From Eledone cirrhosa (Eukaryota), in the NCBI GenBank assembly GCA_964016885.1, contig CAXHJY010001552.1, positions 39,810-103,809 of the forward strand: 64,000 bases of DNA, written 5' to 3'. Each line of letters starts with the position of its first letter. The stretch's first letter is position 1. Shown one piece after another: positions 9,713 through 47,917 of this stretch. A program made the position numbers and the translations under genes. A model generated the notes under the pieces. The model did not search any database. It saw only the letters and a list, made by a program, of their open reading frames with translations, and was not told the origin of the DNA.

Positions 9713-9778
9713 ATTTTGTCTGAAGAAGGCATACCATATTTTTAATATGATATCCCTGAAATATATATATAATGAAAT
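9713..9778 (+). ncRNA. Type I hammerhead motif, family B
   Basis: ATTTTGT-CTGAAGA-stem II-GAAA-(TA)n palindrome-TA-ATGAAAT; relatives at 10410-10472(-), 35003-35065(-), 44839-44901(+), 55900-55963(-), 57028-57090(+). Confidence 0.7.
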
Positions 9779-20110: not shown

Positions 20111-20854
20111 CTACCAGAACTCATTATTGTTGATGTGGCTCACGACATATTTTGACGTGCAACGATCAGCGTTTAAATATTCTGTCTTCAACCGCCACCT
20201 CCCCCTCCAAACCCACAACCCCATAACACCTCTTGCTCCACCTCCACCCCCACCTCCACAACACCTCTCCTTCCCCACTCCACCCGGCAACACCTCTCCC
20301 TTGCCCTCCACCCCCACCAACCCACAATGCCACCCCCACAACACCTTCCTGCCCCGCCCGGCAACATCTCTCCCTTCGCCTCCAACCCCTGCCCGCAATG
20401 CCTCCCACCACAACACCTCCCCTCCCCCCACCCGGCAACACGTCTCCCTGCCCCCTCCACCCCACCCCCACCTCCACAATGCCTCCCCCACAACACCCTC
20501 CGCCCCTCTTATGTTACCACTAAAAATAATCTTGGGGATTAAAAGGAGAGAAGTATTTTTGGTGGGGTTTGGTACAGTGTCAGTGGCGGAATGTGTCTGG
20601 TACCTCTTAGGTAAACACAGCTGAAGCCAATTCTATCACGTATGCACAAATTCTTCGACGTTTGCAAAAATCAATTGAACTCTCTCTCTCTCTCTTTCTC
20701 TCTGTGTATAATTTATATATCTATATATATATATAAATATATATATATATGTATATATAAATATATATATATATGTATATATATAAATATAAATAAATAT
20801 GTATATATATAAATATAAATAAATATGTATATATATAAATATAAATAAATATGT

Positions 20855-20885
<31 letters not shown>

Positions 20886-20904
20886 AATATAAATATATAT
20901 ATAT

Positions 20905-22137
20905 ATGTGAGTATAGACATAGAATATTCGAAAATATTCTGTATGTTTATAATAAACATTTTGAAGACCTAATCGCTATAGAATAGAATACGTCACGTAT
21001 TACAATTAGATTCTCGATAAAAGCAAGGGAAGTAATCTACGCGTTTCATTCTTGTTAGAATTCATCAGGACTACATATCCAGTGCTTTTATCGAGAATGA
21101 CACAGCTAGAGACTTATAGAATACTTAGCTGTGTACTGGAACTGGTTTGAAAGAGCGGTTGCCGGTCCGGCAGAAATTAGAAATTGGAATAAATGCTCTG
21201 AAATAGCGATATATATGTGAGTATAGACATAGAATATTCGAAAATATTCTGTATGTTTATAATAAACATTTTGAAGACCTAATCGCTATAGAATAGAATA
21301 CGTCACGTATTACAATTAGATTCTCGATAAAAGCAAGGGAAGTAATCTACGCGTTTCATTCTTGTTAGAATTCATCAGGACTACATATCCAGTGCTTTTA
21401 TCGAGAATGACACAGCTAGAGACTTATAGAATACTTAGCTGTGTACTGGAACTGGTTTGAAAGAGCGGTTGCCGGTCCGGCAGAAATTAGAAATTGGAAT
21501 AAATGCTCTGAAATAGCGATATATATGTGAGTATAGACATAGAATATTCGAAAATATTCTGTATGTTTATAATAAACATTTTGAAGACCTAATCGCTATA
21601 GAATAGAATACGTCACGTATTACAATTAGATTCTCGATAAAAGCAAGGGAAGTAATCTACGCGTTTCATTCTTGTTAGAATTCATCAGGACTACATATCC
21701 AGTGCTTTTATCGAGAATGACACAGCTAGAGACTTATAGAATACTTAGCTGTGTACTGGAACTGGTTTGAAAGAGCGGTTGCCGGTCCGGCAGAAATTAG
21801 AAATTGGAATAAATGCTCTGAAATAGCGATATATATGTGAGTATAGACATAGAATATTCGAAAATATTCTGTATGTTTATAATAAACATTTTGAAGACCT
21901 AATCGCTATAGAATAGAATACGTCACGTATTACAATTAGATTCTCGATAAAAGCAAGGGAAGTAATCTACGCGTTTCATTCTTGTTAGAATTCATCAGGA
22001 CTACATATCCAGTGCTTTTATCGAGAATGACACAGCTAGAGACTTATAGAATACTTAGCTGTGTACTGGAACTGGTTTGAAAGAGCGGTTGCCGGTCCGG
22101 CAGAAATTAGAAATTGGAATAAATGCTCTGAAATAGC
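20905..22137 (-). mobile_element. Retrozyme-like 310-bp tandem array, inverted block (~4 units, 4 HHRs)
   Basis: Period 310 (20901/21211/21521/21831); GTAATCTACGCGTTTCATTCTTGTTAGAATTCATCAGGACTAC is the HHR reverse complement. Confidence 0.9.
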
Positions 22138-25100
22138 AGTACACAGCTAAGTATTCTATAAGTCTCTAGCTGTGTCATTCTCGATAAAAGCACTGGATAT
22201 GTAGTCCTGATGAATTCTAACAAGAATGAAACGCGTAGATTACTTCCCTTGCTTTTATCGAGAATCTAATTGTAATACGTGACGTATTCTATTCTATAGC
22301 GATTAGGTCTTCAAAATGTTTATTATAAACATACAGAATATTTTCGAATATTCTATGTCTATACTCACATATATATCGCTATTTCAGAGCATTTATTCCA
22401 ATTTCTAATTTCTGCCGGACCGGCAACCGCTCTTTCAAACCAGTTCCAGTACACAGCTAAGTATTCTATAAGTCTCTAGCTGTGTCATTCTCGATAAAAG
22501 CACTGGATATGTAGTCCTGATGAATTCTAACAAGAATGAAACGCGTAGATTACTTCCCTTGCTTTTATCGAGAATCTAATTGTAATACGTGACGTATTCT
22601 ATTCTATAGCGATTAGGTCTTCAAAATGTTTATTATAAACATACAGAATATTTTCGAATATTCTATGTCTATACTCACATATATATCGCTATTTCAGAGC
22701 ATTTATTCCAATTTCTAATTTCTGCCGGACCGGCAACCGCTCTTTCAAACCAGTTCCAGTACACAGCTAAGTATTCTATAAGTCTCTAGCTGTGTCATTC
22801 TCGATAAAAGCACTGGATATGTAGTCCTGATGAATTCTAACAAGAATGAAACGCGTAGATTACTTCCCTTGCTTTTATCGAGAATCTAATTGTAATACGT
22901 GACGTATTCTATTCTATAGCGATTAGGTCTTCAAAATGTTTATTATAAACATACAGAATATTTTCGAATATTCTATGTCTATACTCACATATATATCGCT
23001 ATTTCAGAGCATTTATTCCAATTTCTAATTTCTGCCGGACCGGCAACCGCTCTTTCAAACCAGTTCCAGTACACAGCTAAGTATTCTATAAGTCTCTAGC
23101 TGTGTCATTCTCGATAAAAGCACTGGATATGTAGTCCTGATGAATTCTAACAAGAATGAAACGCGTAGATTACTTCCCTTGCTTTTATCGAGAATCTAAT
23201 TGTAATACGTGACGTATTCTATTCTATAGCGATTAGGTCTTCAAAATGTTTATTATAAACATACAGAATATTTTCGAATATTCTATGTCTATACTCACAT
23301 ATATATCGCTATTTCAGAGCATTTATTCCAATTTCTAATTTCTGCCGGACCGGCAACCGCTCTTTCAAACCAGTTCCAGTACACAGCTAAGTATTCTATA
23401 AGTCTCTAGCTGTGTCATTCTCGATAAAAGCACTGGATATGTAGTCCTGATGAATTCTAACAAGAATGAAACGCGTAGATTACTTCCCTTGCTTTTATCG
23501 AGAATCTAATTGTAATACGTGACGTATTCTATTCTATAGCGATTAGGTCTTCAAAATGTTTATTATAAACATACAGAATATTTTCGAATATTCTATGTCT
23601 ATACTCACATATATATCGCTATTTCAGAGCATTTATTCCAATTTCTAATTTCTGCCGGACCGGCAACCGCTCTTTCAAACCAGTTCCAGTACACAGCTAA
23701 GTATTCTATAAGTCTCTAGCTGTGTCATTCTCGATAAAAGCACTGGATATGTAGTCCTGATGAATTCTAACAAGAATGAAACGCGTAGATTACTTCCCTT
23801 GCTTTTATCGAGAATCTAATTGTAATACGTGACGTATTCTATTCTATAGCGATTAGGTCTTCAAAATGTTTATTATAAACATACAGAATATTTTCGAATA
23901 TTCTATGTCTATACTCACATATATATCGCTATTTCAGAGCATTTATTCCAATTTCTAATTTCTGCCGGACCGGCAACCGCTCTTTCAAACCAGTTCCAGT
24001 ACACAGCTAAGTATTCTATAAGTCTCTAGCTGTGTCATTCTCGATAAAAGCACTGGATATGTAGTCCTGATGAATTCTAACAAGAATGAAACGCGTAGAT
24101 TACTTCCCTTGCTTTTATCGAGAATCTAATTGTAATACGTGACGTATTCTATTCTATAGCGATTAGGTCTTCAAAATGTTTATTATAAACATACAGAATA
24201 TTTTCGAATATTCTATGTCTATACTCACATATATATCGCTATTTCAGAGCATTTATTCCAATTTCTAATTTCTGCCGGACCGGCAACCGCTCTTTCAAAC
24301 CAGTTCCAGTACACAGCTAAGTATTCTATAAGTCTCTAGCTGTGTCATTCTCGATAAAAGCACTGGATATGTAGTCCTGATGAATTCTAACAAGAATGAA
24401 ACGCGTAGATTACTTCCCTTGCTTTTATCGAGAATCTAATTGTAATACGTGACGTATTCTATTCTATAGCGATTAGGTCTTCAAAATGTTTATTATAAAC
24501 ATACAGAATATTTTCGAATATTCTATGTCTATACTCACATATATATCGCTATTTCAGAGCATTTATTCCAATTTCTAATTTCTGCCGGACCGGCAACCGC
24601 TCTTTCAAACCAGTTCCAGTACACAGCTAAGTATTCTATAAGTCTCTAGCTGTGTCATTCTCGATAAAAGCACTGGATATGTAGTCCTGATGAATTCTAA
24701 CAAGAATGAAACGCGTAGATTACTTCCCTTGCTTTTATCGAGAATCTAATTGTAATACGTGACGTATTCTATTCTATAGCGATTAGGTCTTCAAAATGTT
24801 TATTATAAACATACAGAATATTTTCGAATATCCAATGTCTATACTCACATATATATCGCTATTTCAGAGCATTTATTCCAATTTCTAATTTCTGCCGGAC
24901 CGGCAACCGCTCTTTCAAACCAGTTCCAGTACACAGCTAAGTATTCTATAAGTCTCTAGCTGTGTCATTCTCGATAAAAGCACTGGATATGTAGTCCTGA
25001 TGAATTCTAACAAGAATGAAACGCGTAGATTACTTCCCTTGCTTTTATCGAGAATCTAATTGTAATACGTGACGTATTCTATTCTATAGCGATTAGGTCT

Positions 25101-25509
25101 TCAAAATGTTTATTATAAACATACAGAATATTTTCGAATATTCTATGTCTATACTCACATATATATCGCTATTTCAGAGCATTTATTCCAATTTCTAATT
25201 TCTGCCGGACCGGCAACCGCTCTTTCAAACCAGTTCCAGTACACAGCTAAGTATTCTATAAGTCTCTAGCTGTGTCATTCTCGATAAAAGCACTGGATAT
25301 GTAGTCCTGATGAATTCTAACAAGAATGAAACGCGTAGATTACTTCCCTTGCTTTTATCGAGAATCTAATTGTAATACGTGACGTATTCTATTCTATAGC
25401 GATTAGGTCTTCAAAATGTTTATTATAAACATACAGAATATTTTCGAATATTCTATGTCTATACTCACATATATATCGCTATTTCAGAGCATTTATTCCA
25501 ATTTCTAAT
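22137..25509 (+). mobile_element. Retrozyme-like 310-bp tandem array, sense block (~11 units, 11 HHRs)
   Basis: HHR at 22201 and every 310 bp to 25301; units appear identical by eye except ~24831-24835; ends in (TA)n. Confidence 0.9.
22201..22243 (+). ncRNA. Minimal type I hammerhead ribozyme (first sense copy in the array)
   Basis: Stem I GTAGTC/GATTAC, core CTGATGA, stem II ATTCT-AACA-AGAAT, GAAA, palindromic ACGCGT stem III, predicted GUA cleavage after 22237. Confidence 0.9.
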
Positions 25510-25607
<98 letters not shown>

Positions 25608-30816: not shown

Positions 30817-31156
30817 AGGTACAAGTATACATACATACATACATACATACACACATATATACATAGATACACACATACATACATACATACACACATAGAC
30901 ACATACATACATACATACATACATACACACATGCATACATACATACATACACACATGCATACATACATACACACATACACACATACATACATACACATAC
31001 ATACATACATACATACATACATACATACACACATACATACATACACACATACATACACACATACATACACACACACATACATACACACACACATACATAG
31101 ATACATACATACACACATACATACATACATACATACATACATACATACATACATAC

Positions 31157-32336
31157 TCGAAAACTTCTCAGTGTTACTGGGAACTTTAACATCAATGGTG
31201 ATGTGGATAGGCTATACTTCTCACGCAAGGAAGGTGGCCGGGGTCTAAAATCAATATTAACAACATATGAGACCCGGATAGTGACACTGAAGCAACACCT
31301 TCAACAGAGGAAAAAGGTTGGCAACCATCTTGCCCAGGTTTATGACCATGAAAAAAGAAATATCATTAGAATAGCGACTGATCTGGAGGAGAGATATGGA
31401 ATAAAGCCTGATATAAATCTCTCACCCAGAGAAATCGGAAGATCCTATTCAATGTTCAAACAAGATAAAAAAATTGACCAATTTACAGAAAAAGTTGTGC
31501 ATGGATACTTGAGGCGTAAAACACAGACCATAGAGGGGATAAACCACTCAAAAAGCCTGGCATGGAGTTCCGACAAGTTTATGACATCACACCTTGCGGG
31601 ATATCTCTATGCAATACAGGAACAAGAACTCCCTACCAAATATCTGCTGCACAAAAGAGGAGGGCCAGCAGCTGACAATAAATGTAGGCTATGTAAAACA
31701 AAGATCGAGGATGTAAGCCACATTGTTGCCAGCTGCGAAAGAATGTCATCTCGCTACTACCTCCCCATGAGACACGATGGGATAGCTAGAACCATCTGGA
31801 ACGCACTTCGGAAAACAAAATTAACAACAAACGAGGAAGAATATATTGAGACAGATGGCACTAAGGAATACTGGTGGAACCTGAAAATAAAAACTGCCAC
31901 CAAATTAAAGCACAACCGGCCTGATATTGTAGTTTGGGACCACACATTGAAAACGTGTTCTGTTGTGGAGATCAGCTGCCCACTTGATGTAAACGTTGTC
32001 AGAAAAATACAGGAGAAGGAGGACATCTACGGACCATTGATGAGGAGTTTACAAATCCAGTATCCAAGATACACCTTTAGCTTCATACCCATCATTATTG
32101 GTGCTACGGGTTATATACCAACCCGCTTGGACCAAAGTATGACTGAACTTGGATTTGTGGACAAAAAGCGCAGCTCCCTAATTCATAGTCTACAAATGGC
32201 TGCGATAGCTGGCACCTTCAAAATTTGCAAAACATTCTTGCGATTCAAGGGATGACAATTTCTTTTCTTTTACAACCTTGCCACCAGGAAGGTGGCCGGT
32301 CAAAAAAATATACTCGAAATTAAGAGAAAGAGAAAA
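31157..32336 (+). mobile_element. 5'-truncated R4/Dong-like non-LTR retrotransposon in (TACA)n
   Basis: Open ORF C-terminus plus ~80-bp 3' UTR, flanked on both sides by (TACA)n. Confidence 0.85.
31158..32255 (+). CDS. C-terminus of RLE retrotransposon protein: post-RT region, CCHC knuckle, restriction-like endonuclease (no start codon)
   Basis: RKLL...DRLYFSRKEGGRGL, AIQEQ, CRLC-x8-H-x4-C, RHD, RPDIVVWD...E, EKEDIY, PIIIGATG. Confidence 0.88.
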   Translation, partial: RKLLSVTGNFNINGDVDRLYFSRKEGGRGLKSILTTYETRIVTLKQHLQQRKKVGNHLAQVYDHEKRNIIRIATDLEERYGIKPDINLSPREIGRSYSMFKQDKKIDQFTEKVVHGYLRRKTQTIEGINHSKSLAWSSDKFMTSHLAGYLYAIQEQELPTKYLLHKRGGPAADNKCRLCKTKIEDVSHIVASCERMSSRYYLPMRHDGIARTIWNALRKTKLTTNEEEYIETDGTKEYWWNLKIKTATKLKHNRPDIVVWDHTLKTCSVVEISCPLDVNVVRKIQEKEDIYGPLMRSLQIQYPRYTFSFIPIIIGATGYIPTRLDQSMTELGFVDKKRSSLIHSLQMAAIAGTFKICKTFLRFKG

Positions 32337-35429: not shown

Positions 35430-37290
35430 AGCTACCACATCAAGACGTAAATTATCCGCGTATTGTTCGTACTATCCGTTAGGGTATAATGTGGGGCTGT
35501 AATACAGGAAAGTGTTATGCAATTTGTGTTTACAAGCCGAAATTGCCTCAGATATTTTGTTTAAGATGTGGTCATTGGCGTAGAGTATTTCCAGGGCTTC
35601 AGCGGCGCAAAGATCGCACGGTCTTTTATTTCCGTTATACGATCTAGCTTTAGCTAGGATCTCCCAGTGTAACCTATATTGGGCGTGGTTGTCTTTTAGA
35701 CTCCAGATATAAGCTTAAAGTGACGTCATATTCCTTCCTAAATGGTTAAGAAAAGAATGCGTGTGCATGTAATGACGCTGCTTGAATCTACTGGCGGTTA
35801 ACCCTTTGTAGGACCTGTGGGACGTGGGTGTGTCGACCTTACATTTGTAGACAATGTTACTAGAGCGGCATTTCCCGGATAGAGGGCAGTCCACCCGATT
35901 CCTACAGTTACAGTTAGTACTAGCTACAGGGATGCACGTGTTCCTACGGCTAGGTAATTTAGCTAAATTTGAAGCAGTGATATTATGTGCAAAGTTATGA
36001 GTCGTGGAGTAAGATATTTTAACGGTGTTTCTATTTAAAATGTTATTACATTTGTGTGCTGAGGGGAAATGCTTCTTAATTAGGGAGAGAAAGATCTTAG
36101 CTAATGGTGTGGCCACCTCCATGTTATATGGGGGGTTATACCATCTAATACGTCGGGATCTATCTATTTTTTCTAGGTGTATGCTCATACTTAGTATATG
36201 CTACCTTAACGACAAATCCGCTCCGAGCAAGAGCTTCATTGTAATATGTGGAATGGTCGGTGAAAATATGCTCGTTTGTAGATAGACGGGAAAACCTCAA
36301 AGAAGCGTTTCTTACCAGGTTCTTGGTTATTCTGGCAGGGTGGTTAGAATGCTTACTGATGTAATTAAGCGTCTCATTCGGCTTTCTGTACGGGTAGTGC
36401 AAGCCATTCGACAAATTGAGGCTAACGTCGAGGTAGTTTACGACCTAGAGGTTGACCTCAACCTGTATAGAGAGGTTGAAGCCTTTAAAGAAAGCTGTGA
36501 GTTCTTTTCTAAACCTGTCGCAAACGCGGAGGCCGCACTTGGTCATGGTAAAAAGACTGTCATCGCGGTACAAACCACCACCCACGTTGGGGAATTCGTC
36601 CTTGATAGAGGACAGAAGGAAAAGGCTGATAAGATCTGTAACCTCCACCAAATCGCTGGCGCCGATACTCACGTCGAATGGTGTACTATTAGATTTTTTT
36701 TATCCAAACAGAGTCGTCGAAATTAATCACCGACTTGTGGGCATTGAGGATGACATCAACTTCGAAATCCTTAACCACTGTGAGCGTTTTAGCGAAATTG
36801 ATAGCTCTAAGAAGTGGTAAAGTGATGGCGGAGTAGTAGTTATTGATGTCGAATTGAATAAAACGGCAATGTTCCTTGTTGCATATGACATTGAACCATT
36901 CAATCACCGCGAAAGAATTATTCCACAGTGTAAGAGGGGCCAAGCTTCTAATTTCAGGTATAATTCTATCTAAAATTCGTTTACTAAGTCTACATAAACC
37001 AAACTTCGTAGGGTTAATTAGCCGAATAGAAAGGTTGTTAGCGAAAATGGGTTTGTAATCGTCCAGGGTAAAGTGGGGAACGACGTATTATCTTCGTTTT
37101 TTTTCCATTCATTGCCAGGGAACGTCTTCACGAACCAAAGTATCGTCTTCCTCTTTTCCTTCGCTTGCAACGTTTTTCGAAATATTTACTTTTGCATTCA
37201 CAGATTGATCTTTTTTTAGTGTCAGAAGATCCCGTTAAGGGTGAAAGCAGCGATTCTTTGCTTAAACTTTAATCTGTTATTTTAATAAAT
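35430..37290 (-). mobile_element. Penelope-like element, 5'-truncated, with inverted terminal-repeat fragment at the truncation (37080-37290)
   Basis: RT and GIY-YIG remnants; 37080-37290(+) matches the 3' end of the second copy (45955-46155, -). Confidence 0.85.
35474..37058 (-). pseudogene. Frameshifted PLE reverse transcriptase + C-terminal GIY-YIG endonuclease
   Basis: RLINP, FIQFDINNYY (motif A), FDVSIGASD..EV (B), LYRDD (C), PYRKPN, SNHP, WYNPPY, CNCR..CPL.GKC, IVYKC..YKGLT..FKQR. Confidence 0.85.
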
Positions 37291-45955: not shown

Positions 45956-47890
45956 TAAAATAACAGATTAAAGTTTAAACAAAGAATCGCTGCTTTCACC
46001 CTTAACGGGATCTTCTGAAACTAACAAAGTCAATCTGTAAACGCAGAACTGGATATTTCAAAAAACGTTGCAACCGGAGGAAGACAGGAAGACGATACTT
46101 TGGTTCGTGGTAACGTTCGCTGGCAAAGAGCGGGAAAAAACGAATAATACGTCATTAATAGGAGCGGTGAAAAGCAATTACGCGCAAAGACAAAACCACG
46201 TTTATGGTATAAAAGAGGTCGTAGACTAATGTTCTCTTAGGTGGTGCATAGAGACGTTCTCTGGCAATGAACGAAAAAACGAAGGTAATGAGTCATATGT
46301 GGAGCGTGGAGAACAATAGCACGCAAAGACAAAACCACGTAAATGGTATAGCAGAAATCGTAGACTAAAATTCTAACTAGGCGACCAAATGAATCTCCGC
46401 TACAGAGTTAAGAACAAAGTAAATAAATACAATACAGAAGTAATAGAAACAAATAAATACATACATGCAAACAGATACGTACATACACAAGCATACGCAA
46501 AACCTTACCATAGGTATACAAAACCACGTACATATAAATATGTGTGTGTGTGTGTATGCTTGTGTACAAATAAATAAATAATTATATCAACGTATATAAA
46601 TAAATAAATACGTATATAACAAGCGCACTCGCATACCTACATATAAATACACGAATGTTCGGAGACGTAAGTCAACTAAAACAAGAAGTACACATATACA
46701 CACACCCACCATACGTACGAACCTGCATACTCACGCAGACGCAAAACTCCCGTATACACATAGCCAAACCCTAAATACCAGACTATGTAAAAATGATACG
46801 CCATAACAGTCAAATATACGTACGAGAAAGTATACATACCTTCACAAAACATACGGGTAATATATACTTACCTATGCAAATAAGTAAAGGAATAAACAAA
46901 ACATATACTTAGCTCCCACACCAAGACGTAAAATATCCACGTATAGGTCGTGCTATCCGTTAGGGTATAACGTGGGGCTGTAATACAGGAAAGTTTTGTG
47001 CAATTTATGTTTACAAGCCGAAATTGCCTCAGATTTTTTGTTTAAGATGTGGTCTGTAGCGTAGAGTATTTCCAGGGCCTCAGCGGCGCAGAGGTCACAT
47101 GGTCTTTTATTCCCGTTATACGATCTAGCCCTAGCTAGGATCTCCCAGTGTAACTTATATTGGGTGTGGTTGTCTTTTAGACTCCAGATATAAGCTGAAA
47201 GGGACGTCATATTCCTTCTTAGAGGGTAACGAAAAGAATGGGTATGCATGTAAAGACGCTGCTTGAAACTATTGGCGGTTAACCCTATGTAGGCCCTACG
47301 GGACGTGGGTGTTGCAACCTTACATTTGTAGACAATGTTACTAGAGAGGCATTTCCCGGATAGGGGGCAATCAGCCCGATTCCTACAATTACAGTTAGTA
47401 CTAACTACAGGGTTGCACGTGTTCCTACGGCTAGGTAGTTTAGCTAAATTTGAAGCTGTGATGTTATGTGCAAGGTTAGGAGTCGTAGAGTAAGAAATTT
47501 TAATAGTATTTCTATTAAAAATTTTACTATATTTATGTGTAGGGGGAAAATGCTTCGTAATAAGGGAAAGAAAGATCTTAGCTAATGGTGTGGCCACCTC
47601 CATATTATATGGTGGGTTAAACCAACAAATGCGACGGGATCTATTTCTTCTAGGTCTATTTTCGTTCTCTGTATATGCTACCTTATCGACAAATGCACTT
47701 CGAGCAAGAGCTTCATTGTAGTATGTGGAATGGTCGTTGAAAATGCGCTCGTTGGTGGAAAGACGGGAAAGCCTCAACGAAACGTTTCTTACCAGGTTAT
47801 TGGTTATGCTGGCAGGATGGTTGGAATGCTTACTTATGTAATTAAGCGTATCATTCGGCTTTCTATACGGGTAATACAACCCATTGGATT
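45952..47890 (-). mobile_element. Penelope-like element, 5'-truncated, ~1-kb 3' UTR ending in a variant-HHR terminal segment at (TA)n
   Basis: Open EN-region ORF; terminus shared with 37080-37290 and 50192-50360. Confidence 0.85.
46953..47879 (-). CDS. PLE RT thumb + GIY-YIG endonuclease (5'-truncated)
   Basis: YRKPN, SNHP, WFNPPY, CNCR..CPLSGKC, IVYKC...YIGLT..FKQR..H, CDLC..E, LNKKSE..CKH. Confidence 0.88.
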   Translation of the reverse strand: MYYPYRKPNDTLNYISKHSNHPASITNNLVRNVSLRLSRLSTNERIFNDHSTYYNEALARSAFVDKVAYTENENRPRRNRSRRICWFNPPYNMEVATPLAKIFLSLITKHFPPTHKYSKIFNRNTIKISYSTTPNLAHNITASNLAKLPSRRNTCNPVVSTNCNCRNRADCPLSGKCLSSNIVYKCKVATPTSRRAYIGLTANSFKQRLYMHTHSFRYPLRRNMTSLSAYIWSLKDNHTQYKLHWEILARARSYNGNKRPCDLCAAEALEILYATDHILNKKSEAISACKHKLHKTFLYYSPTLYPNG

Positions 47891-47917
47891 TTAGTCTTCA
47901 ATTTTATTATTATTACA

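Follow-up and report, generated by a model that had tools for sequence, protein, structure and literature searches.

Organization of the Array

The 64,000-bp stretch of Eledone cirrhosa DNA analyzed here, termed the window (assembly GCA_964016885.1, contig CAXHJY010001552.1, positions 39,810 to 103,809 of the forward strand), contains an array of non-coding 310-bp units, each carrying one type I hammerhead ribozyme sequence, which we assign to the retrozymes, small retrotransposed repeats known from several animals. The array is composed of two arms pointing away from each other and is not a single head-to-tail 15-mer. Tandem Repeats Finder reports two adjoining arrays, 20899-22137 with 4.0 copies and 22137-25509 with 10.9 copies, and the 15 identical hammerhead cores, spaced at 310 bp, fall in two orientations with four on the minus strand and 11 on the plus strand. 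An earlier interpretation made from the letters alone (the sequence-only reading) had described one tandem array of non-coding 310-bp units with 15 hammerheads and both ends in (TA)n; the units, the cores and the ends are confirmed here, and the inverted two-arm layout is what it had overlooked.

Unit positions are numbered from window position 22137 (unit position 1). The left arm (20899-22137, minus strand) comprises 4.0 perfect units in perfect reverse complement, running from an inner end at unit 242 to a short outer end at about unit 232-240. Its cores start at 21998, 21688, 21378, and 21068, within four hammerheads (21962-22004, 21652-21694, 21342-21384, and 21032-21074) that together span 21032-22004. 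The short outer end (20899-20909, minus strand) lies in the unit's own (AT)4 tract, is microhomologous to the target, and is a putative start of reverse transcription; beyond it is the left (TA)-rich target tract (20714-20898). The two arms share a single C at the inversion junction (22137), where their RNA-sense 5' ends meet, so that the RNA-sense 3' ends form the outer ends, both of which adjoin (TA)n. The right arm (22137-25509, plus strand) has 10.9 units with 11 hammerheads, extending from unit 1 to a long outer end at unit 273, and is followed by the right (TA)n target tract (25510-25606). Its last stretch, unit 241-273 (25477-25509, plus strand), is missing from the left outer end and corresponds to the tail of Penelope-like elements (PLEs). 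Apart from 24832 T>C and 24834 T>A, both in one plus-strand unit, the array is free of substitutions, and these two changes are the variant that the sequence-only reading had seen near 24831-24835 in otherwise identical units.

Hammerhead Ribozyme and Predicted Fold of the 310-nt RNA

All 15 copies contain the core CTGATGA-ATTCT-AACA-AGAAT-GAAA-CGCG-TA and show the sequence features of a type I hammerhead (C3UGAN7GA9 ... G12AAA, U16.1-H17, and an open-ended stem I). The first plus-strand ribozyme, placed by its core, an Rfam alignment and the fold, occupies 22201-22243 and recurs every 310 bp. Its predicted elements are stem I (22201-22206 with 22238-22243), the core segment 22207-22213, and stem II (22214-22227), followed by GAAA, with cleavage predicted after 22237. 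Stem I has 6 bp and continues through an internal loop into a 3-bp stem, and stem II has 5 bp. Helix III consists of a single A-U pair capped by CGCG and is unformed in the predicted monomer; the palindrome ACGCGT stands where a stable helix III would be and is able to pair over 6 bp between two copies, with a computed energy of -9.5 kcal/mol. The description of the ribozyme as minimal in the sequence-only reading thus suits helix III and not stem I, which extends past the internal loop.

A predicted 16-bp helix (22177-22192 with 22250-22265, plus strand) closes the ribozyme domain at 22177-22265. When the unit is folded as a circle (-67.2 kcal/mol, z -4.6 against 60 shuffles) this stem I extension, the ACACAGCTA and GCCGG hairpins and stems I and II all form, as the sequence-only reading had proposed for the extension and the hairpins, and stems I and II have pair probabilities of 0.85-1.0; folded as a linear RNA the unit has a z of -3.5 against shuffles. 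The unit has a GC content of 34.5% and a longest ATG frame of 30 codons, and a search of its antisense strand for a ribozyme core found none. The Rfam search that the sequence-only reading had put forward as a check gave no match in the array at the gathering score and below it only one alignment (Hammerhead_HH9, 23 bits, E 0.0049, gathering cut-off 52).

Comparison with the sister families described below shows that stem II and the 3-8 core pair (C-G versus U-A) are paired in 97% of cells across the alignment. All five tested pairs (stem II and the 3-8 pair) have changed on both sides in sister families, with a covariation score reached by none of 500 shuffles, in a test comprising seven sequences of about two deep lineages and leaving out stem I, where the alignment is offset. 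None of the 36 fixed changes found among the insertions falls in the 11 core positions, an observation that is weak on its own. A hairpin at unit 199-218 (22335-22354, plus strand) with a TTCG loop lies just upstream of both outer-end sites; in the sister families its stem is kept by paired changes and its loop has gone from TTCG to GCAA, making it a candidate enzyme-binding site.

Genomic Copies and Sister Families

The unit is perfectly matched at many places on the largest contigs of the genome, and the exact 37-base ribozyme of the window occurs 2,738 times. Exact patterns of the long end followed by TA give 1,013 and 224 genomic matches, with none for the controls, and count at least 1,237 insertions in (TA)n genome-wide. 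A looser end pattern has 783 matches on the forward strand, which suggests about 1,500 insertions, and with a mean of 9.9 units per insertion in the sampled loci the genome total is estimated at roughly 15,000 units. Singleton changes number only 133 in 361,030 bases, and the burst is therefore very recent. No LTR (long terminal repeat) layout was seen in the dispersed copies, with no search aimed at a primer-binding site or polypurine tract having been made. The proposal of a young dispersed family, and the genome search for further copies through which it could be checked, are both borne out by these counts.

Among older sister families, one is about 93% identical (L043:1677-2537) and others are about 76% identical (L032, L056, L118, L139, and L150), all with the fold retained. 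The sisters at about 76% have units of about 318 bp, a U3-A8 core and a longer helix III. Sister loci were located at L032:9342-9901, L056:1277-1809, L118, L139:5749-6552, L143, and L150:3024-3519, and the minus-then-plus layout is also present in L043, L056, L139, and L150.

Insertion Footprint

Two sets of loci were compared, sample A with the 20 best BLAST hits, not picked by their ends, and sample B with 140 loci on contigs C1-C3, picked by the long end. A minus arm followed by a plus arm, each pair with one short and one long outer end, is present in 17 of the 20 loci of sample A, and a diverging pair of arms in 127 of the 140 loci of sample B. One short and one long outer end occur in 123 of 128 pairs; five odd pairs and 15 single arms were set aside from the pair analysis. 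The short end fits a unit position of about 230 in 71 of the 123 pairs and reaches 240 in 32, and the long end is at unit 266 or 271 in 120, placing the two ends about 36-41 nt apart. TA directly follows 224 of the 246 outer ends, and target-site duplications are not readable inside (TA)n.

The inner ends are scattered at fractional unit positions and coincide with the ribozyme cut site in 5 of 246 cases against 5.6 expected. The junctions between the arms have an overlap of 0-6 bases in 71 of 123 pairs, a larger overlap in 23 and a gap in 29. The median arm is about 1.2 kb, in 62 of 123 pairs the arm with the long end exceeds the other in length, and arm lengths are weakly correlated (rho 0.25). 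Because either arm can be the longer, neither is a simple fold-back copy of the other, and copying of one arm from the other by fold-back was ruled out.

Three loci have a more complex structure. L068 has 272 foreign bases at its inversion junction (L068:4533-4804) that are 88% identical to sequence in L070, likely reflecting a template switch to another repeat during insertion. L051:4660-9393 is an insertion of four pieces, in the order minus, plus, minus, plus, with the same pair of junction positions used more than once, and L050 is a local duplication.

Sequence Variants Shared between the Arms

A full unit is covered in both arms of 98 pairs, after trimming of 45 inner and 22 outer bases, and the remaining 25 of the 123 lack this cover. 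The two arms agree in unit variant in 92 of the 98 pairs, compared with a mean of 11.4 and a maximum of 24 in 20,000 shuffles, although 33 unit variants exist among the pairs and 22 of them are seen once. Eighteen private changes, distributed over 17 loci, are fixed in every unit of both arms. This sharing of variants indicates that both arms derive from one template and that each event passed through a single unit sequence, in agreement with the recent origin by reverse transcription of a monomer-length template suggested by the sequence-only reading. Of 100 testable minority calls, 86 are not mirrored in the other arm.

Changes were scored relative to the unit of the window. A>G accounts for 13 of 36 fixed changes compared with 9 of 133 singletons (p 3e-5), and for 11 of 34 (p 2.5e-4) once two sites with G in the older sister are dropped. 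Eleven of the 13 fixed A>G changes are at paired sites (p 0.04). The same change recurs on several backgrounds at unit sites 50, 67, and 121, and two out-of-register mosaics (L079 and L084) both involve A/G at unit 67. The A>G excess fits adenosine-to-inosine (A-to-I) editing of the RNA.

One sequencing run, X1, whose kind is not on record, has T at 22364 at all counted depth, and the C variant of the window is present in about 8 of 92 concordant sampled loci; this hints, weakly, at a turnover of variants among individuals or from one species to another. Contigs of X1 cover the unit at a summed depth of about 1e5-3.6e5, with many variants and with TA junctions at low depth, and the runs X4, X5, and X6, from three other organism codes, each yield one contig of 340 bases (310+30) that closes into a loop; trace amounts of tandem DNA would produce such a loop just as an RNA circle would, and these contigs were given no weight. 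None of the listed data sets containing the unit is recorded as RNA, which speaks neither for nor against expression.

Penelope-like Elements and Other Features of the Window

Young PLEs with open frames are present in the genome, both Hydra-type (with CxCx5C and DKT motifs and 713-amino acid frames in L093 and L106) and Neptune-type, together with further Hydra-type families. The Hydra-type family with these 713-amino acid frames has 96-99% protein identity at 126 scored places, and its two end sites, both in (TA)n, are separated by about 86 nt; a pattern search for a canonical hammerhead in its 3' end found none. Those PLEs that were read to the 3' end finish in (TA)n. One Hydra-type copy (L095) is without a GT-AG-bounded stretch, as though spliced.

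The unit has no open frame with reverse transcriptase (RT) and GIY-YIG endonuclease domains. Compared with 20 Hydra-type loci it shows no similarity (best E 0.14), and among the matches listed for 24 Neptune-type loci the only one is an adjacent retrozyme array (L188). Matches to the sister sequences in 1.3 Mb of genomic DNA are other retrozyme copies or short fragments, and the rest of the window has no meaningful DNA similarity to the unit.

Elsewhere in the window, fragments of the Hydra-type PLE family that includes L093 and L106, with the CxCx5C linker, lie at 46956-47897 and 35475-37087 (minus strand) and are not recognized by Pfam. About 20 further solo hammerhead-like cores stand beside (TA)n, including those at 9720, 10465, 10733, 15812, 15954, 25901, 26386, 35058, 44708, 44846, 45813, 52000, 53515, 53858, 55956, 57034, 57487, and 57892, some of which form diverging pairs (15812-/15954+, 10465-/10733+, 44708-/44846+, and 55956-/57034+). 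Another Hydra-type family (seen in L052, L042, L115, and L153) has a 3' ribozyme that the core at 15954 matches. A 384-amino acid open frame at 31101-32252 (plus strand) with a zf-RVT match is likely the end of a non-LTR retrotransposon. A scan for bacterial promoters gave results no better than chance and has no bearing on this DNA.

Proposed Mechanism and Alternatives

The inversion and the two fixed outer ends point to a PLE-type enzyme and to priming from both DNA strands. We consider it likely that the array arose when a 310-nt hammerhead retrozyme inserted, very recently, as two diverging arms, for which a PLE RT-endonuclease copied one circular monomer RNA from both nicked strands. The hammerheads would cleave read-through transcripts, probably in dimeric form with the ACGCGU palindromes paired, and the monomers would be ligated into circles, some of them probably A-to-I edited. 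The PLE enzyme would nick both strands of (TA)n and start reverse transcription at about unit 230-240 on one strand and 266-273 on the other, each cDNA lapping the circle a few times and stopping at random before microhomology joins the ends of the two cDNAs; for a smaller share of the insertions the template was probably a linear multimer. The fuller proposal, in which each insertion is the record of one A-to-I-edited 310-nt circle primed by both nicked strands and lapped independently, we hold to be possible without calling it probable. If true, it would provide genome-scale evidence, from more than a thousand fresh events, for circular RNAs as true retrotransposition intermediates, and changes made by RNA editing would be returned to the DNA of the germ line.

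Several observations weigh against copying from a circle, and the main alternative is the same PLE enzyme and double priming acting on an uncut linear multimer transcribed from homogeneous master arrays, with circles, if made, as by-products. Locus L130 is a mosaic in register in both arms, the outer two units being of one variant and the rest of another, and L112 carries one in-register change in both arms; both fit an ordered linear template and not a monomer circle. Matching arms would likewise be expected if a young master array of uniform units had been copied from a linear transcript. Purified anole PLE in vitro used mainly uncut RNA, its main substrate being the unprocessed form, and ribozyme mutants still inserted (PMC11167929). 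The weak helix III may leave precursors uncut, the monomer of the axolotl ribozyme HHR_Amex1 giving 6% cleavage (PMC7229834), and of nine predicted Xenopus retrozyme dimers one was cleaved in vitro (10.64898/2026.07.22.740005). Against a linear template as the usual one, single-unit mutations should pass on as in-register mosaics, which are seen in only 2 of 123 loci, whereas 17 loci have a private change in every unit of both arms and most minority calls are unmirrored; the 33 homogeneous variants would in any case need a monomer bottleneck somewhere in the genealogy. We regard the linear multimer as an unlikely usual template, while the circle, because it rests on this ratio of 17 to 2 (loci with private both-arm changes to mosaics), is an inference and not a demonstration. 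The choice of enzyme and the editing step have their own difficulties. No DNA similarity to the unit was found in the two Hydra-type families and one Neptune-type family examined, a small part of the many PLE families, and the 3'-end spacing of the PLEs is about 86 and about 60 nt, not 36-41, with ends that by eye are unlike the unit. For editing, the strand test is not significant (A>G 11 versus T>C 6, p 0.15), tolerance of G-U wobble may favor A>G in stems, and polymerase error may contribute.

Other origins of the two arms appear less probable again. Expansion and homogenization of a short PLE-type insertion at the DNA level, by slippage, unequal crossover, or gene conversion between the arms, is decidedly improbable as the source of the units: local amplification of tandems is discussed by Li et al. 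(10.64898/2026.07.22.740005), and in four long arms (L063, L067, L068, and L235) variants repeat at a spacing of 5-21 units, a further point against pure circle lapping which, like the duplicated locus L050, indicates that DNA-level duplication may add units later. Yet singletons remain unhomogenized while whole variants are fixed across both arms, and the inner ends are scattered while the outer ends are fixed at two sites, the long one in at least 1,237 places. RNA-to-RNA replication of the circle in the manner of a viroid, with genomic variants sampling that population, would account for high variant diversity at very low age and for a well-folded 310-nt circle. It is very improbable, given the missing antisense core, a diversity that single-unit mutation in an estimated 15,000 or so units and possible editing can match, and inverted arms that can yield antisense RNA without replication; the term replicon used in the sequence-only reading has no support in this sense, since genomic copies can explain the RNA. 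A shade less probable still is an inversion made by the enzyme of a long interspersed nuclear element (LINE) through classical twin priming on linear RNA. Inversions of the 5' part with microhomology are a hallmark of L1, and the arrays resemble L1 in this respect, but a poly(A) tail is missing, the outer ends both lie at fixed positions inside the unit, and the inner end of the long arm, which classical twin priming would place beside the second priming site, is not clustered there (10 of 123 at 236-270 against 13.9 expected). Chimeric long reads can produce perfect inverted repeats, and the window sits on a small contig (C1579). An assembly artifact from fold-back reads is nevertheless a negligible prospect, as the arms are unequal in length and end, the flanks are unrelated, and 123 sampled loci on the largest contigs follow the two-end rule with junctions that are individual to each locus.

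Comparison with Known Retrozymes and Penelope-like Elements

By unit size, GC content, ribozyme type, tandem dispersal, and co-occurrence with PLEs the family is, as judged from its DNA, an animal non-LTR retrozyme of the kind known in coral, mussel, and axolotl (Cervera and de la Pena 2020, PMC7229834). The retrozymes of that study are likewise dispersed, low-GC, non-coding tandem units of 150-450 bp with one type I hammerhead each, and HHR_Amex1 shares a helix III of one pair capped by a palindromic tetraloop, being a poor self-cleaver as a monomer and an efficient one in dimeric form. In those retrozymes circular RNA and cleavage have been demonstrated; for the family in the window both are predictions. 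Circle-templated synthesis of tandem cDNA by a PLE is the cycle proposed in the same paper, so that both the retrozyme class and the idea of a circle copied by a PLE are already published. The difference in E. cirrhosa is that each insertion is built of two arrays pointing apart, with (TA)n adjoining their two fixed outer ends; the words inverted, microsatellite, octopus, and cephalopod are absent from the main text of PMC7229834. Animal retrozymes have also been argued to be non-autonomous PLE derivatives from co-occurrence and pLTR homology (Li, Clavereau, and Pollet 2026, 10.64898/2026.07.22.740005). The evidence presented there is phylogenetic, whereas here it is a PLE-type insertion footprint with no pLTR homolog in the families examined; in the main text of that paper the word tail is not used and inverted appears a single time, within a reference. 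The literature, taken without the supplements of these two papers, gave no account of two-armed retrozyme insertions or of this family.

Retrozyme circles were thus proposed in 2020 as PLE templates, and insertion-level evidence is absent from the main texts of both papers. The insertions also bear on the way in which PLEs form inverted ends and tails, itself an unsettled question. What the family offers is a large collection of events, little decayed, in which the two start sites, the single template of each event, the scatter of the stops, and the A>G excess can all be measured, and its 310-nt substrate is small enough for direct testing, which makes the published mechanism testable. As a tool, too, a polymerase able to go round an RNA circle repeatedly and to integrate at (TA)n would be of interest.

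Among PLEs, (TA)n targets, an inverted 5' part, and a 30-40-bp tail confined to one end are described as hallmarks (Craig et al. 2021, PMC8557442), the tail being defined in that paper and in PMC11167929. An inverted 5' part together with a 30-40-bp tail on one end, the configuration of non-autonomous PLEs, is found in 123 of 128 pairs here. In vitro, purified anole Poseidon PAc cleaves both target strands and extends each of them, and its two neighboring internal start sites on the RNA define the tail (Frangieh et al. 2024, PMC11167929). The geometry of the E. cirrhosa insertions is shared with Hydra, Neptune, and Naiad PLEs in the inverted 5'-truncated copy, the one-end tail, and the (TA)n bias, and with non-autonomous Chlamys PLEs such as MRC1 in the multicopy head-to-tail arrangement (PMC8557442). 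In contrast with the PLEs, the E. cirrhosa unit is without an RT or endonuclease frame, and both of its arms are multi-unit with neither tending to be the longer.

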